Part shown: positions 13,684 to 23,800 of the stretch, one piece after another
Numbering within the stretch: position 1 is the stretch's first letter
Layout: each line of letters begins with the position of its first letter
Virus record (IMG/VR): IMGVR_UViG_3300028048_000052
Coordinates: 111,155 to 175,154 of that record
DNA length: 64,000 nucleotides
From: a virus
Taxonomy: Duplodnaviria > Caudoviricetes
Reading direction: 5' to 3' (one strand)
Program-made: the position numbers and the translations under genes
The notes under the pieces: generated by a model
The model's input: only the letters and a program-made list of their open reading frames with translations
The model's database searches: none
What the model was told of the DNA's origin: nothing

Positions 13684-14424
13684 GTGCCAAAATTAATTGA
13701 TTTGACCGGGAAAAAATTTGGAAAACTTATTGTAAAAGAAAGAGCACCAAATAAAAATAACCAAGTATGTTGATTATGTAAATGTGATTGCGGGAATGAA
13801 GTAATTGTCACAAGAAGAGAATTATTAACTGGACATACTAAATCGTGTGGGTGTTATCGTAAAGAGATTACCGCAAAAAGAAATAAAGAAATAAAACCTA
13901 AAAAATTAGATGGGTTAAGATTTGGCAAATTAACTGTTTTAAAGCCAACTGAATTACGAGATACAAATGGCGCAATAATTTGAGAGTGTGTTTGTGATTG
14001 TGGAACACATACAATGGTTCGTGGAAATTTATTAGTTAATGGAATGATACAGAGTTGTGGATGTGTAAAATCACAAGGAGAACAAAAAATTATTGACATT
14101 TTAAAAAAATATGATATAATTTATGAAAAAGAAAAAACTTTTGAAACATGCCGTTATCCAGAAACAAATTTCTTATGTCGTTTTGATTTTTATGTTAATA
14201 ATAAATATTTAATAGAATTTGATGGTGAACAACATTTTAAAAAAAGTAAATATAATAATAGTTGAAATACAGAACAACATTTAAAAGAAACTAAAATGCA
14301 TGATGAATATAAAAATAATTGGTGTAAAGAAAATAATATCCCATTAATTAGAATTCCTTACAACCATTTAAATGAATTAAAAATAGAAGATTTAATGTTA
14401 GAAACAAGTAAATTTGTTATTTAA
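13684..14424 (+). CDS. Free-standing homing endonuclease, Cys-rich repeats + Vsr/DUF559-like nuclease (3 TGA=Trp)
   Basis: AGGAGG RBS + GTG; DLTGKKFGKL, TGA-LCKCDCG, TGA-ECVCDCG, RFDFY, IEFDGEQH; same architecture as 6127-6825. Confidence 0.8.
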
Positions 14425-16254: not shown

Positions 16255-16770
16255 ATGATTATAAAATGTAAATGTACTGTTTGCGGGAAAGAATTTGACG
16301 CATTAAAAAGTACTGCAAAATATTGTAGTAAAGAGTGTATGAATAAAGCGCGCAGAATTAGGGTGGCAGAAGAAAAAAATAATCCTAAAAAAAGAAATGA
16401 AAACGGGATGACAGAAAAAACATGCTTGCTTTGTGGGAAACCGTTTTCTCCTAAAACCGCTGCGGCGAATAATAGAAGCTGTTGCTATGAATGTATGCCA
16501 GATGGAGTTCAATTGAGACGTGGAGATTTTTTAGCAAAAATTAAAAAAATACGCGGAGGGCAATGTGAGCGATGCGGTTATCATACTTCTATAAAAGCGC
16601 TTGAATTTCACCATTTAGATCCAAACAAAAAAGATTTTACTATTAGTAATGATCATTTTAAATTAGAAGAGGCTTTAGAAGAAAGTAAAAAATGCGTATT
16701 GTTATGCGCAAATTGCCATAGAGAACTTCATGATGATGTTTGGAAAATTGAAGAATTAGGATATAAATAA
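16255..16770 (+). CDS. HNH endonuclease with N-terminal Zn fingers
   Basis: CERCG...LEFHHLDP...LLCANCHRELH. Confidence 0.85.
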   Translation: MIIKCKCTVCGKEFDALKSTAKYCSKECMNKARRIRVAEEKNNPKKRNENGMTEKTCLLCGKPFSPKTAAANNRSCCYECMPDGVQLRRGDFLAKIKKIRGGQCERCGYHTSIKALEFHHLDPNKKDFTISNDHFKLEEALEESKKCVLLCANCHRELHDDVWKIEELGYK

Positions 16771-16786
16771 GAAAGGGGGCGATATA

Positions 16787-17958
16787 ATGGAACTTACAGT
16801 AAAACAACAGGAAGCTCTTACGCTTGCTGTTTCTCGCTATGTCAATGGAGAAGCATACACATGTATTAGCGGGTATGCTGGAGTTGGTTAGGTAAAACAA
16901 CATTGATTAGTTTCATTATTTCCGCTCTTGGATTACAACCATGGGAAGTTTGCTATATTGCCTATACCGGTAAGGCAGCGCTGGTATTAAAAAGCAAGGG
17001 ATGCGAAAATGCCATGACAGCACATAGATTGTTATATATTTCTCATCCAAAAGCAGATGGAACTTTCTTTCATATGCCACGAAGACCTTTACCACCTTAT
17101 AAAATAATTGTATGTGATGAGATATCAATGTTACCAAAAGATATGTGGGAGCTTCTTTTATCTCATCATATTCATGTTATTGCGCTTGGAGATCCGGCCC
17201 AATTACCTCCTATCACAGAAGATAATGGGGTATTGGCAAATCCGCATATATTTTTGGATGAAATCGTACGTCAAGCCCAAGATAATGAAATCATTAAATT
17301 GAGCATGGATATTCGTGAAGGAAAACCTTTACAATTATTCAATGGTAACCAAGTTAAAGTAATTGATAAAAAAGATTTAAAATCGGGAATGTATACTTGG
17401 GCTGATCAAATTATTTGTGCTAAAAATGAAACACGACGCCAAATAAATGAGTATATGCGTGAAATGACATTGGGTATGAAAACACCCGACCCAGTGGAAG
17501 GTGATAAAGTCATCTGTTTAAAAAACGATTGGGATAGTATGAACGCTTATGGAGATATGTTAGTTAATGGCACCATTGGAACTATTTCTTATATTCGATA
17601 TGATGATAATAATAAATATTTAAAACCCCATGTTGAATGGGATTTATTACCAGATGGTTATATCCCATCTGAGTGTGCTGAAGATCCATATTTTAGAGAT
17701 TTGAATATTGACTATAAATTATTAACAACTGGTGAACCAACAGTTACACAAAAAAATTTTAGAAAATTTCCTCAAATTTGGAAACCAAAAGAATTTGATT
17801 ATGGTTATTGTATTACCTGTTGGAAAGCGCAGGGTGATCAGTATAATAAAGTATTATTATTTGAAGAGGGATTCCCTTTTGAGCCAGAAGAGCATAGAAG
17901 ATATCTCTATACTGGTATTACAAGAGCAGTTGAAAAATTGGTAGTCGTAAGGAAATAA
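16787..17958 (+). CDS. RecD2/Dda-like SF1B helicase interrupted in Walker A by a 5-nt insert (388 aa if bypassed)
   Basis: RBS + ATG 16787 gives ...ISGYAGVG then TAG. Skipping 16889-16893 gives GYAGVGKTTL. Downstream AYTGKAA, DEISM, GDPAQL, TCWKAQG, YTGITRA are intact. Confidence 0.8.
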
Positions 17959-18033: not shown

Positions 18034-19398
18034 ATGAAAAATGAATATGGTTATCTTCCAAATGAGACGCCATCGTTAGGTAAATTACTTTTATATGCTT
18101 TACAGCAGGTAATTGTAATGTTTCCAGCGACAGTTACCGTAGCATTGATTACTGGTTTCCAAGTATCAACAACGATATTCGCGTCAGGTTTGGCGACTTT
18201 GTGTTTTATTTTAATTACACAAAAGAAAATTCCTTTGTACTACGGCTCAAGTTTTGCTTATTTATCTGCTGTTAGCGCAATGGTTATGGCAGAAGGAACT
18301 GCTGATCAAATTGCAAGTTGGCAGGCAACAGGAATTTTACCGACTGAATTAATTTCAAAAGCACAATTTGGAATTATTATGTCTGGATTTGTATCAATTG
18401 CGGCTGGATTGCTTGTAAAGAAATTTGGTAAAGACTCTGTTGAAAAAGTTCTCCCGGCTTCAATTACTGGTCCAGTATCTATGGTCATTGGTCTTACGTT
18501 AGCTGGAAACGCTTTAAGTGATGCTATTTCAGCTGGTAATACCGCATGGTGCATTGTCGCATTAATTACTTTAATTTCTACTATGATTTATTCAAGATAT
18601 TTAAAAGGATTATTGGGACAATTACCATTATTATTGGGTGCAGTTACTGGTTGTATTGTAGCTGGATTATTCGCATTATTTGGAATTAATTTATTTAGAA
18701 GTATTCCAACAGAAGCACTTAATTCACTTTGGTCTTTTGGCCCATTTGCAATTCCAGCTTTCAGTTTACCGAAATATAGTTGGGCGGCTTTAATTGGAAT
18801 TATGCCAATTGCTATTGCCACTATTCCAGAGTCAACTGCGCATGTTTATCAGTTAGATCTTTATGTGCAAGATATTGCAAAAAAGAAAGGTGTTGAAGCT
18901 GATAGAATTGAAAATCTATTAGATAAAAATTTAATTGGAGATGGTTTGTGCGACATGATTTCTGGACTTATCGGTGGTCCAGCTGGAACAAATTATGGCG
19001 AAAATATTTCCACAATGGCGATTACGAGAGTATTTAGTATTCCTGTGTTAATTGCCGCTAGTATTATTGCAATGATAATTTCTTGTTTTACGCCTTTAAT
19101 TCAAGGAATTTATGCTATTCCGTTAGCTGTAATTGGTGGTTTAGAGATTTATCTCTTTGGAGCAATCGCAGCGCAAGGTATGGCAATTATGATAGATAAA
19201 AAAGTAGATATGTTTGATAGTAAAAATATTGCTGTTATTGCCACAATTGTTATTGTTGGTATTGGTGGACAATATGCATTTGGTGGAAATATTCCATTGT
19301 TTGGAATGAATATTCCTTGCGTTGCTGGGGCAGCGATTGCTGGTATTCTAATTAATGCTTTATTATCGATAAAGAAAAAAGGAGTAATGAATGAATAA
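18034..19398 (+). CDS. NCS2/NAT family uracil-xanthine permease (UraA/PyrP-like)
   Basis: Multi-TM; LQQV..MF, YGSSFAY, signature GTNYGENIST. Confidence 0.85.
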   Translation: MKNEYGYLPNETPSLGKLLLYALQQVIVMFPATVTVALITGFQVSTTIFASGLATLCFILITQKKIPLYYGSSFAYLSAVSAMVMAEGTADQIASWQATGILPTELISKAQFGIIMSGFVSIAAGLLVKKFGKDSVEKVLPASITGPVSMVIGLTLAGNALSDAISAGNTAWCIVALITLISTMIYSRYLKGLLGQLPLLLGAVTGCIVAGLFALFGINLFRSIPTEALNSLWSFGPFAIPAFSLPKYSWAALIGIMPIAIATIPESTAHVYQLDLYVQDIAKKKGVEADRIENLLDKNLIGDGLCDMISGLIGGPAGTNYGENISTMAITRVFSIPVLIAASIIAMIISCFTPLIQGIYAIPLAVIGGLEIYLFGAIAAQGMAIMIDKKVDMFDSKNIAVIATIVIVGIGGQYAFGGNIPLFGMNIPCVAGAAIAGILINALLSIKKKGVMNE

Positions 19399-20755
19399 TC
19401 TTTTAGAGAAATGGTTTCATTTGAAAGAGAATGGCACTACATTAACAACCGAGTTAATTGCTGGTCTCACTACTTTTGCGGCAATGGCATATATTATTGT
19501 CGTAAATCCTGCTACATTGGCTGGGTTTGGAGAACCCGGAGCGATGTTTATTGCTACAATCTTTGCATCTGCGCTTAGTACGGCTCTGCTTGGTTTAATC
19601 GCTAATATCCCATACGCCGCGGCGCCGGGACTTGGGTTAAACAACACCGCCGCCAACATCCTTGCTGGCTATACAGCTTACCTCGTAGGACTTAGCCCAG
19701 AAGGCATTATCGCAGTTGTCTTGCTCTCTGGTTTAATTAATGTATTAATTACAGTTACAAATATTCGTAAGCATATTATTAAAGCAATTCCAGAGTCATT
19801 ACAGAATGCAATTAGTGCGGGTATTGGTATGTTTATTATCTATATCGCATTATGCAATGTTGGTTTGGTTCATTTCACTTTCGGTATTCCTGCTATTAGC
19901 ACGACAATTGATTTTAAAGTATTATTAGTATTCATTGTTGGCTTATGTTTAACGGTTTATCTCTTATTAAAAAATGTCAATGGCGCAATCTTAATCGGTA
20001 TTGTTGTTGCTACTCTCTTAGGTATTCCTCTTGGAGTAACTAATTTCAGCACTGGTTATAGTATTGGTGAAGCATTTACTGCTTATGGCCATTGGTTTGG
20101 AACTCCTATTACAAAGGGTCTGCCAGAATTATTTAGTGATTTAAGAAATATCATTCCTATCTTGATTGGTATTTTATCCTTCTCGTTGTCTGATATTTTT
20201 GATACAATTGGTACATTCATTGGTACTGGTAAAGTTAGTGGTATCTTTAATGACGCTGATTTAGAAGATATGGAAAGCGGTTCTGGTTTTGATTCAAAAA
20301 TGGATAAAGCATTATTCGCAGATGCAATTGCTACTCCTATTGGTGCTTTACTCGGCACATCTTCAACTACTACTTATGTTGAATCTGCGGCTGGTATCGG
20401 CGCTGGCGGTCGTACAGGATTAACCTCTATCGTTGTAGCATTATGCTTCTTATTATCATTACCATTCGCTGGTTTCGTTAGTGGTATCCCATCAGCGGCA
20501 ACAGCTCCTGCATTAATCGTAGTTGGTGTTATGATGATGGCATCATTAAGAGAGATTAATTGGAATGATTTAGAAGAAGCAATCCCTGCAATGTGTGCAA
20601 GCGTGCCTATGGCATTAACCTATGGTATTACAAATGGTATTATGTTAGGTTTCTGGGCATACACGTTTGTAAAACTTTGTAAAGGAAAGATAAAAGAAGT
20701 CCATCCAATCATTTTGGTAAGTGATATCTTGTTTATCTTAAACTACCTAATGTAA
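19391..20755 (+). CDS. NCS2 AzgA-like purine permease (PbuG/PbuO-like)
   Basis: ELIAGLTTFAAMAYIIVVNP, APGLGLN, DIFDTIGT, TTYVESAAGIGAGGRTGLT. Confidence 0.9.
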   Translation: MNNLLEKWFHLKENGTTLTTELIAGLTTFAAMAYIIVVNPATLAGFGEPGAMFIATIFASALSTALLGLIANIPYAAAPGLGLNNTAANILAGYTAYLVGLSPEGIIAVVLLSGLINVLITVTNIRKHIIKAIPESLQNAISAGIGMFIIYIALCNVGLVHFTFGIPAISTTIDFKVLLVFIVGLCLTVYLLLKNVNGAILIGIVVATLLGIPLGVTNFSTGYSIGEAFTAYGHWFGTPITKGLPELFSDLRNIIPILIGILSFSLSDIFDTIGTFIGTGKVSGIFNDADLEDMESGSGFDSKMDKALFADAIATPIGALLGTSSTTTYVESAAGIGAGGRTGLTSIVVALCFLLSLPFAGFVSGIPSAATAPALIVVGVMMMASLREINWNDLEEAIPAMCASVPMALTYGITNGIMLGFWAYTFVKLCKGKIKEVHPIILVSDILFILNYLM

Positions 20756-20856: not shown

Positions 20857-23800
20857 ATGAGAACATATTTTGGAGCACATAACCATACTCATTATTCCTA
20901 GGTAAGTCCAATTTGCGACTAATTGATTGTATCAATAAACCAAAGGATTTAATTAATAAAGCAATAGAGTTGGGGTTATCTGGTATCGCTATAACTGATC
21001 ATGAAAGTTTATCCGCAGGGATGGAAGTTAATCAATATGCAAAAAAGATTCACGAAAAAAATCCTAATTTTGTTATTGCATTAGGTAATGAAATTTATTT
21101 AACAGATGATAGAAGTAGTGGGCAGAAATATTATCATTTTATTATAACAGCAAAAAATAAAAGAGGTTATAGAGCATTAAAAGAATTAAGTTCAATCGCT
21201 TGGTATAATATGTATAGTGATAGAGGTATGGAAAGAGTTCCAACTTTAAAAAGCGAATTGAAAGAGGTAATGAAAAATTATAAAGGTGATGTAATAGCAC
21301 AAACTGCTTGTATTGGTGGTGAATTATCTCAATTAATTCTTGAAATGGAACATGCGAGAGAAATTAATGATAAAGAGAATGCGAATACATCTTATTTAAA
21401 GATTAGAGAATTTATTGATTTTTGTATTGATGTATTCGGCAAAGATGATTTTTTTATTGAGTGTGCGCCAGCGAATAATCCCGACCAGATTAAAGTAAAC
21501 AAGAAATTAATTCAAATAGCGAAAGTTTATGGATTAAGAATGATATTTGCGACAGACGCACATTATTTAAGACCAGAAGATAGAAGTGTTCATAAAGCAT
21601 TTTTAAATTCAAAAGATGGCGAAAGAGAAGTTGATGAATTTTATCAATATTCATATTTAATGAATAGTGATGAAGTTGAGGAATTATTAAGTTATAGTTT
21701 TGAAAAGAAAGATATAGATTGGTTATTTGAAAATACTTTATATTTACAAAATAAGATAGAAAATTATAGTTTAGAAAAACATCAAGATATTCCAGAAGTA
21801 AAAGTTAAAGATTATCCAAAAGTAAACAAGAAAGAAGAATATGCGGTTTTATCAAGTTTATATAACTCTGATAATATTCAAGAAAGATATTGGATTAATC
21901 AATGTGAAGAAGCATTAATTCAAAAAGGTTTAGATAAAGATAAAAGGTATTGGGATAGATTAGAAGAAGAAGCAACAACAAAAAGAATTGTTGGTGAGAA
22001 ACTTCAAACTTGTATGTTTAGTTATCCAAATACTTTACAACACTATATTGATTTGTTTTGGCGTTGTGGTTCAACGGTTGGCGCAGGAAGAGGTTCTGCG
22101 TGTAGTGGATTAAATCATTATCTGTTGGGTATAACTCAGTTGGATCCGATTAAATGGAATTTGCCGTTTTGGAGATATTTGAATCCAGAACGAGTTGAAT
22201 TAGGTGATATTGATTTGGATTTGGCGCCAAGTAGATTACAAACAATATTTGAAGAAATTAGAAAAGAAAGGGGAGAACTTGGTTTAGTTCAAGTTTGTAC
22301 TTTTGGAACAGAAGGTACAAAATCAGCAATTCAAACAGCTTGTAGAGGTTATAGAAGTGTTGATTATCCCGATGGTATAGATGTAGATGAAGCACAATAT
22401 TTATCATCGTTAATTCCAGTAGAAAGAGGATTTCAGTGGAGTATTAATGATGTTATAAATGGAGATGCGGAAAAAGGCAGAGTGCCTGTAACTCAATTTA
22501 TAAATGAGATTGAACAGTATCCGGGATTATTAGATATTGTCAAAGGCATTGAAGGATTAGTAAGTAGAAGAGGAAGTCATGCGTCGGGTGTAATTTTATT
22601 TGATGAAAATATTTATGATGATGCAGCGATTATGAGGACTCCATCTGGGGCGATTGTAACTCAGTGGGATTTACATATGCAAGAAGCCGCAGGTTCAGTT
22701 AAATATGATTTCTTATTAACATCAGTTCAAGATATTATTATTGAAACGATTAATCTTTTACAGAAAGATGGTAAGATTGAAAAAGATTTAACTTTAAGAG
22801 AAATATATAATAAGTATTTACATCCAGAAGTATTACCGCAAGATGATAATAAAATGTGGGATGCATTAGCAAATGGAACTGTTATAAATTGTTTCCAATT
22901 TGATAGTGCAGTTGGTTCTCAGGCAGCGAAAAAGATTAGACCTCATACGCCAATGGAAATGGCGGATGCTAATGGTTTAATGAGATTAATGGCAGCCGAG
23001 AAAGGCGCAGAAACTCCATTAGATAAATATGTAAGATTTAAAAATAATATTAATTTATGGTATCAAGAGATGAAGAAATGGGGATTAACCGAAGAAGAAA
23101 TGAAAACGGTTGAACCATATTTTAAATCATCTTATGGGGTACCACCATCACAAGAACAATTGATGATGATGTTAATGGATAAAAATATTTGCGGATTTGA
23201 TTTAAAAGAAGCAAACGCGGCGAGAAAAATCGTTGGTAAAAAACAGATGGATAAGATTCCAGAGCTTCATCAAAAAGTATTAGACCAAGCCAAGAGTAAA
23301 GCGTTAGGTAAATATATTTGGGCACAAGGTGTTGGCCCGCAGATGGGTTATTCATTTAGTATTATTCATGCATTAGCATATTCATTTGTTGGTATGCAAA
23401 CTTTATATTTAGCGACTCATTTTAATCCAATTTATTGGAATACGGCGTGTTTGATTGTTGACAGTGGGTCGTTAGAAGAAAGTAGTGATAGCACAAATTA
23501 TAGAAAGATAGCGATAGCGATTGGTAAAATGAGAAAAGCTGGTATTAATATTAGTTTAGTTGATATTAATAAGTCAGGTTTTGGATTTGAACCAGATGCA
23601 GAAAATAATAGAGTGTTATTTGGATTAAAAGCGGTAATGGGTGTTGGCGATGAAGTCACGAATAAAATTATTGAGAATAGACCTTATAGTTCAGTAAATG
23701 ATTTTATTGAAAAAGTTAATCCAAATAGGACAGCGATGGTTGCATTAATAAAAGGTGGAGCGTTTGATGTATTAGAGCCAGATAGAATCAAATGTATGAA

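Follow-up and report, generated by a model that had tools for sequence, protein, structure and literature searches.

In bacteriophage T4, the bypass insert of the mobA/gene 60 region blocks self-cleavage by MobA (Manning & Atkins, bioRxiv 10.1101/2022.08.31.505936). The same authors report that the gene 60 bypass accompanies the nuclease in all phages that have it and persists in several that have lost it, that the bypass starts with a stop or a hungry codon and that most insertions of this type are recent. To our knowledge, gene 60, together with the homologues of its cassette, has for more than 30 years been nearly the sole natural efficient bypass in bacteria or phages. Synthetic stop-hops were described in Escherichia coli by Weiss et al. 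in 1987 and reviewed by Atkins et al. in 2016 (PMC5009743), who stated that natural in-frame stop hopping was not known and that shorter counterparts of gene 60 were "long presumed". Two further systems are relevant, namely the mobile "byp" elements of Magnusiomyces capitatus mitochondria (PMC5009743) and the free-standing Seg and Mob homing endonucleases of T-even phages (intronless homing). Byps are 27–55 nt long, while self-immunity in the Seg/Mob systems usually relies on silent substitutions.

Here, we analysed a window of 64,000 nt, which is the final 64 kb of the 175,154-bp record of an uncultured phage, and in which a helicase gene is interrupted within its Walker A codons. The locus resembles T4 gene 39/mobA/gene 60 in several ways. 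An HNH gene lies just 5' of a gap, which interrupts a replication gene where an essential motif is encoded; the Gly take-off codon is followed at once by a stop (or hungry) codon, and a matched landing codon closes the gap. As in gene 60, the gap is found in every nuclease-bearing genome and in some without the nuclease, a diverged flank of the target gene is carried along, and the insertions are mostly recent and recurrent. In contrast to the 50 nt of gene 60, the helicase gap has 5 nt and its family 5–10 nt, no significant or conserved take-off stem-loop was found, and the target is the P-loop of a Dda/RecD-like SF1 helicase instead of the Toprim domain of a topoisomerase. As the HNH gene is intergenic, the helicase gene, unlike the gene 60 target, has not become two ORFs with added tails. 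A search of phage DNA, which did not include a direct comparison of the HNH protein with MobA, showed no homology to the gene 60/MobA element, and we regard the proposed helicase hop as an analogue of gene 60 and not as a member of that element.

Matched codons flanking a stop, a short forward hop (+5, +6), re-pairing of the peptidyl-tRNA and a slow A site are shared with the synthetic stop-hops; unlike these, the helicase arrangement occurs in nature, is conserved and seems necessary for enzyme activity, the hop itself being inferred. As with the byps, there are many short skipped inserts which are mobile, and the match between take-off and landing is often imperfect (two-out-of-three pairing); byps differ in that they belong to mitochondrial translation, place an unused codon in the A site and have no link to an endonuclease. 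With the Seg/Mob systems the locus shares an intergenic endonuclease gene, presence or absence between near-identical phages, co-conversion of the flank and a target in a conserved neighbouring gene, whereas the immunity of the helicase cassette appears, by inference, to rest on a frame-breaking micro-insert. No description of the helicase gap element was found in the literature searched; what we consider new is the gap position after GYAGVG, where take-off is at Gly and the two GGT codons match perfectly, its presence in four lineages, and the statistics on the HNH gene and the boundaries.

A five-base gap in the Walker A codons of a helicase gene

An ORF at 16787–16888 (MELT...CISGYAGVG, in full MELTVKQQEALTLAVSRYVNGEAYTCISGYAGVG), preceded by a strong Shine-Dalgarno sequence, ends with GGT at 16886–88 and is terminated by TAG at 16889–91, as read directly from the window. 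In the +2 frame, GGT at 16891–93 is followed by AAA (16894), ACA, ACA and TTG (16903), which encodes GKTTL, and this frame remains open for 355 codons, up to TAA at 17956–58. Deleting the 5 nt at 16889–93 (TAGGT) gives GYAGVGKTTL, as in 74/74 distinct intact relatives. The features of the locus, in window coordinates, are as follows.

16255–16770, plus strand: free-standing HNH endonuclease gene (171 aa), between recJ (14443/14506–16173) and the helicase gene
16772–16779, plus strand: Shine-Dalgarno sequence AAAGGGGG, 7 nt ahead of the helicase ATG, read from the sequence
16787–16888, plus strand: helicase 5' segment, 34 codons, cassette-borne, ending with the first six Walker A residues
16880–16883, plus strand: Shine-Dalgarno-like GGAG, 2 nt ahead of the take-off codon, which may act as a stimulator (inferred only)
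16886–16888, plus strand: proposed take-off codon GGT (Gly34)
16889–16893, plus strand: 5-nt coding gap TAGGT, in which the stop TAG (16889–91) overlaps the proposed landing GGT (16891–93)
16894–17958, plus strand: helicase 3' segment (KTTLISF...), 354 codons to TAA, with the Walker A Lys-Thr, Walker B and UvrD_C_2

TAG is a genuine terminator in the window's phage, where it ends 26 of 127 long ORFs (read with TGA as Trp, 66 of them having an in-frame TGA). The first-pass annotation, made without database searches, had read the site as GGT-[TA-GGT]-AAA-ACA-ACA, with removal of 5 nt restoring GYAGVGKTTL, and this reading held exactly. Its statement that the remainder of the gene is intact held as well, the downstream frame being open to its TAA. 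It had also claimed that initiation at TTG 16903 would lose the catalytic Lys, which we confirmed: separate initiation of the downstream segment was rejected, as the sole upstream in-frame ATG (16861) is closed by TAG at 16867, and TTG 16903, the first usable start, lies past the Lys-Thr codons.

A weak hairpin proposed in the same annotation to enclose the stop is not supported, since the 60-nt fold at the window gap is not significant (z = -0.24; one relative reaches z = -2.9) and a consensus stem over four relatives has one compensatory pair only. A longer stem spanning the gap was rejected too, being neither significant nor clearly conserved. GGAG, GGGG or GGGAG precedes the take-off codon in all four gapped relatives, while the intact L003 has GGTG. 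It is possible, on weak evidence and by analogy, that the GGAG aids the hop as the Shine-Dalgarno sequence does in prfB +1 frameshifting. No tRNA-Gly or tRNA-Ala that might aid hopping, and no obviously odd anticodon loop, was seen among the ten predicted tRNAs of the phage. The 34-aa N-terminal segment is ordinary helicase sequence, found in intact relatives too. As synthetic stop-hops in E. coli reportedly run at about 1%, efficiency at the helicase gap could be low.

The downstream part is a Dda/RecD-like SF1 helicase (PHROG phrog_325, Dda-like helicase, E 2e-80) with the Pfam domains AAA_30, AAA_19 and UvrD_C_2, and its family is single-copy in the window's phage genome. Its 3' segment is 98% identical to the intact 388-aa protein P0003, and the closest intact relatives of the helicase are L003 (96% aa) and P0003/L236 (98%). 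A helicase-seeded scan of viral contigs returned 100 loci, of which 84, representing 74 distinct sequences, have an intact G[YFW]AGxGK[ST]; all 74 read exactly G-x-A-G-x-G-K, and in intact relatives G[AV]G runs directly into AAA with no insert. By blastn against deposited phages, two weak helicase matches were obtained, both in Enterococcus phages, and nothing else. The protein database contains many N-terminally truncated calls of 348–369 aa for this family, and gapped helicase genes are currently annotated as truncated or split ORFs. A search of viral contigs for exact copies of the 16-mer GGTTAGGTAAAACAAC was discarded, its 55 matches all being chance in-frame G-L-G-K-T-T P-loops of unrelated ATPases.

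Related gaps and selection on the helicase

The DNA behind N-terminally truncated calls was examined, in NCBI GCA_963425925.1 and four Logan runs. A 5-nt gap at the identical position was found in three further lineages from independent assemblies, whose helicases are 76–90% identical to that of the window: L231–L233 (90%; one NCBI assembly and two Logan runs) read GCT GGT [TAAGT] AAA, L234 (77%) reads GTT GGT [TAGGA] AAA and L235 (76%) reads GTT GGT [TAGGT] AAA. In this window-type gap, the first triplet is always a stop (TAG/TAA) and the last is Gly-like (GGT, GGA, AGT). The same gap in separate lineages indicates that it is genuine and recurring. Between gapped genes, downstream dN/dS values (Nei-Gojobori) are 0.04 for window-L231, 0.13 for window-L235 and 0.08 for L231-L235; in the 34-codon 5' segment they range from 0.08 to 0.13 among gapped relatives, with synonymous sites near saturation. 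Further stops or frameshifts were absent from all of the approximately 40 gapped helicase genes.

The gap is thus real, recurrent and conserved, and both halves of the gene are under purifying selection. The first-pass annotation had named two outcomes that would refute it, namely a sequencing indel, or absence of the insert from all relatives together with relaxed selection on the gene (a recent pseudogene). Neither applies, as the gap recurs across independent assemblies, the insert is present in L231–233, L234 and L235, and dN/dS is 0.04–0.13 with no second lesion. Homing can carry the gap into diverged genes, so that shared gaps do not provide strict dating and the selection signal may partly predate the gap. 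Moreover, the closest relatives of the window's helicase (96–98% identical) are free of the gap, and the window's own copy may therefore be young.

A sister gap is located three codons upstream, directly after the Ala of GYA, with about 30 variants of 5–10 nt. It was found at twelve distinct loci in the helicase-seeded scans and at many more in later scans. When all scans were pooled and a variant was defined as take-off codon, gap and next codon, 33 distinct variants were obtained, with gaps of 5 nt (n=9), 6 nt (n=5), 7 nt (n=6), 8 nt (n=12) and 10 nt (n=1), among them the in-frame 6-nt TAAGCT and the 8-nt TAAATGCA. A stop codon (TAA, TAG or TGA) opens 32 of the 33, and excision of the gap restores a canonical G[YF]AGxGK[ST] in every one. 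Of the 19 variants with gaps of 7–10 nt, 14 end in GCN, their final triplet encoding Ala as the take-off codon does. In the 5-nt gaps the final triplet is ACT, ACC or AGT, or a perfect GGT if the stop is TAG, as in the window; its first base is fixed by the stop codon. The landing triplet does not always match the take-off codon in full: agreement is limited to one or two positions in, for example, AGT (L231), ACT (many loci) and GTA (L159). For sister-type (GYA) pairs of closest relatives, dN/dS is 0.05–0.075 at pS 0.15–0.42.

On a tree of 97 helicases, the window-type gap is confined to a single well-supported clade with four gapped and two intact members, and the sister-type gap requires at least 10–13 gains or losses. 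This scatter fits what is expected of a mobile element.

Two observations concern individual relatives. The sole variant without a stop, GCC [CGGTG] GGT, is at about 490–510 of L105; it opens with CGG, which we take to be a rare "hungry" codon, its zero frame runs on for eight more codons, and it offers a natural test case for hopping driven by a hungry codon. In L122, L123, L082, L093, L099, L109, L113, L128, L134 and L136, an in-frame TAG occupies conserved Gln positions (GDPF*LPP, WAD*), which suggests that TAG is read as Gln in these relatives; the stop in their gaps is TGA or TAA, while the window's phage instead reads TGA as Trp.

The neighbouring HNH gene and the cassette boundaries

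The first-pass annotation had overlooked the gene adjoining the helicase. It encodes a protein whose N terminus has two Cys-rich repeats resembling zinc ribbons and whose C terminus has an HNH motif; the protein matches PHROG phrog_2255 (HNH endonuclease, E 2.9e-25) and PHROG HNH families more generally (E 3e-25 to 1e-7), while the Pfam HNH match falls just under the cutoff (E 4e-4). The HH...N...H and CxxC motifs are invariant in the HNH alignment. A sequence search of the PDB with this protein was uninformative (best E 0.24). The gene is single-copy in the window's genome and is missing from the closest intact relatives, L003 and L236.

When the HNH protein was compared by tblastn to all helicase loci, only gapped loci matched (L023, L105, L110/111 and L159–163, and L231 and L234 of the window type). 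In a metagenome scan seeded with the HNH alignment alone, 24 loci also contained the helicase and 24/24 were gapped. Altogether, every one of at least 28 distinct loci with both genes has a broken Walker A, while the HNH gene occurs in 0/74 distinct intact loci. The reverse does not hold, as neither an HNH gene nor another recognisable endonuclease was found beside the gap at L235 and at ten sister-type loci; a Pfam search near these ten revealed only a 3D/SH3 protein, a tail lysozyme and unknown ORFs.

The extent of the unit is seen by comparing gapped and intact loci. L159 (gapped, with HNH) and L120 (intact, without HNH) are 95–100% identical on both flanks, and they differ by the HNH gene, by a stretch of 80% identity over the first 31 helicase codons and by a 7-nt gap, directly past which identity returns to 92–100%. 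Similarly, the window and the intact L236 show pS 0.83 and pN 0.18 in the 5' segment, and pS 0.41 and pN 0.014 downstream. Because similarity breaks at the gap in both pairs, the mobile unit comprises the HNH gene, the gap and, between them, the unit's own copy of the helicase 5' end. Linkage of the gap to the HNH gene is strict, and the cassette boundaries lie at the gap.

Two other observations were made on insertions in or near this region. At about 2400–2500 of L108, an intein interrupts the P-loop of the same helicase (...VTHN|TTT after GK), which suggests that the Walker A codons attract different selfish elements. In the window, an ORF at 13684–14424 (246 aa), between a primase-like gene and recJ, contains three in-frame TGA and stays open only with TGA as a Trp codon; its product is Cys-rich with repeated CxCDCG-like motifs and has no Pfam match, and L236 and L003 lack the whole segment. 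This ORF may, tentatively, be another free-standing mobile nuclease gene.

The stop-hop reading, its rivals and neighbouring observations

We consider it likely that the locus is a mobile homing-endonuclease cassette, that its gap abolishes the cassette's own target, and that ribosomes cross this gap by a stop-hop from GGT to GGT; the hop, its efficiency, the nuclease target and the immunity are all inferred. In this model, TAGGT would be the 3' end of the cassette, after the HNH gene and the diverged first 34 helicase codons. In a co-infecting relative whose helicase allele has no gap, the HNH protein would cut the conserved sequence coding for Walker A, and the cassette would be copied in when the break is repaired from the genome that carries it. 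By analogy with MobA and gene 60, the gap would break the target and leave the carrier immune to its own nuclease, with the gap presumed to fall within the true HNH recognition site. The adjacent HNH gene would, in our reading, explain why the gap exists at all. The phage still needs the helicase, so the gap would have to be skipped during translation: while UAG, which is slow to decode, occupies the A site, the peptidyl-tRNA-Gly on GGU would unpair from the mRNA, the mRNA would slide by 5 nt, the tRNA would re-pair with the identical GGU, and decoding would resume at AAA to give GYAGVG-KTTL in one chain, with the predicted tryptic junction peptide YVNGEAYTCISGYAGVGK.

A matched GGT/GGT stop-hop is the only reading that yields the P-loop of all 74 distinct intact relatives, and because the gap travels with the HNH gene and the helicase stays under strong selection, ribosomes most likely hop it. 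The claim of the first-pass annotation that stop-hopping is needed for an active helicase is thus supported, the hop being inferred from sequence alone, with no protein or ribosome data.

The rival that survives best, although unlikely, is a dead helicase, in which the gap is a nuclease-resistance scar or repair error in a dispensable gene, whose clean reading frames would reflect a recent event or repeated gene conversion from intact alleles. It is favoured by the intact state of the nearest relatives L003, L236 and P0003, which would allow the window's gap to be recent, and by the frequent gains and losses of gaps on the tree. T4 Dda is non-essential, which is also in its favour. Against it are the dN/dS of 0.04–0.13 between gapped genes at saturated or high pS, the lack of any second lesion in about 40 gapped genes, the absence of another helicase of the same family from the genome, and the retention of a stop and an Ala/Gly-like landing triplet while the gap drifts, which is unlike a neutral scar. 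A dead gene is thus disfavoured, although the window's copy, which may be young, could still be one.

Also improbable is a +2 or -1 frameshift, or readthrough of the stop, by which the P-loop would gain 1–3 extra residues (GYAGVG-G-KTT, GYAGVG-LG-KTT). The -1 product ...AGVGLGKT would still fit the loose PROSITE pattern [AG]-x4-G-K-[ST], and GGTTAGGTAAAAC encodes an in-frame G-L-G-K-T in many other ATPases. Against this, GTT GGT TAG offers no slippery site and tRNA-Gly cannot re-pair at -1 (UGG) or +2 (UUA). Furthermore, gaps of 5, 6, 7, 8 or 10 nt would place variable insertions in the most conserved motif, which is exactly G-x-A-G-x-G-K in 74/74 distinct intact relatives, while excision is always canonical. 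As the five 6-nt variants are in frame, frameshifting cannot explain them.

Removal of the gap before translation, either by replication or transcription slippage between the GGT repeats or by an unknown RNA excision, is very unlikely. TTGGT|TAGGT is a near-tandem 5-nt repeat, and the 6-nt TAGGCT and TAAGCT resemble mutated TACGCT duplications, so that slippage is plausible as the origin of the gaps and not as the route of expression. Repeats of sufficient length for slippage are absent from the flanks of most gaps, loss of the gap from the DNA would restore the presumed HNH target, and assemblies from several samples are all gapped; moreover, no mechanism is known to splice out 5–10 nt. A sequencing or assembly indel is all but excluded by the same 5-nt gap in five other independent assemblies and by P0004, which represents 25 member sequences.

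Returning to the stop-hop, the helicase locus and its roughly 33 variants form a minimal natural system in which to study what a hop requires, reduced to a 5-nt gap, identical Gly codons and one stop, and natural variants differing in gap length, stop codon and landing match are available for reporter constructs. The locus also illustrates that a selfish nuclease needs neither introns nor inteins to enter essential genes at their most conserved codons. A bolder reading, towards which we lean with some reserve, is that stop-hops of 5–10 nt are a widespread natural recoding device in the homing-endonuclease cassettes of phage replication genes, where a micro-gap made up of take-off codon, stop and a landing codon resembling the take-off would block the cassette's own nuclease and ordinary bacterial ribosomes would skip it efficiently without the elaborate signals of gene 60. 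If true, this would cover in-frame stop hops, of which the 2016 review knew no natural case, and the window's phage would possess two such gaps, in the helicase gene and in dnaE.

The dnaE gene (window 20896–20909) is broken after codon 14, CAT TAT TCC [TAGGTAAGTCC] AAT TTG, by a gap of 11 nt that opens with TAG and ends by repeating the take-off codon TCC, which makes it a second hop-like gap in this genome. It has no adjacent HNH gene, a permease gene being located upstream. TAGGTAA was considered as a conserved element common to the helicase and dnaE gaps and rejected: this 7-mer is shared in the window's genome, but the helicase relatives have TAAGTAA or TAGGAAA.

Between the helicase gene and dnaE (window 18034–20755) lie two adjacent Xan_ur_permease (NCS2) transporter genes; the pair is conserved in L231 and L236, and the second gene has 94–99% nucleotide identity to L236. 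Finally, outside the window (G000:C1:64519-64811), ARAGORN with introns allowed predicts a tRNA-Lys(UUU) with a 212-nt intron, next to nine ordinary phage tRNAs.
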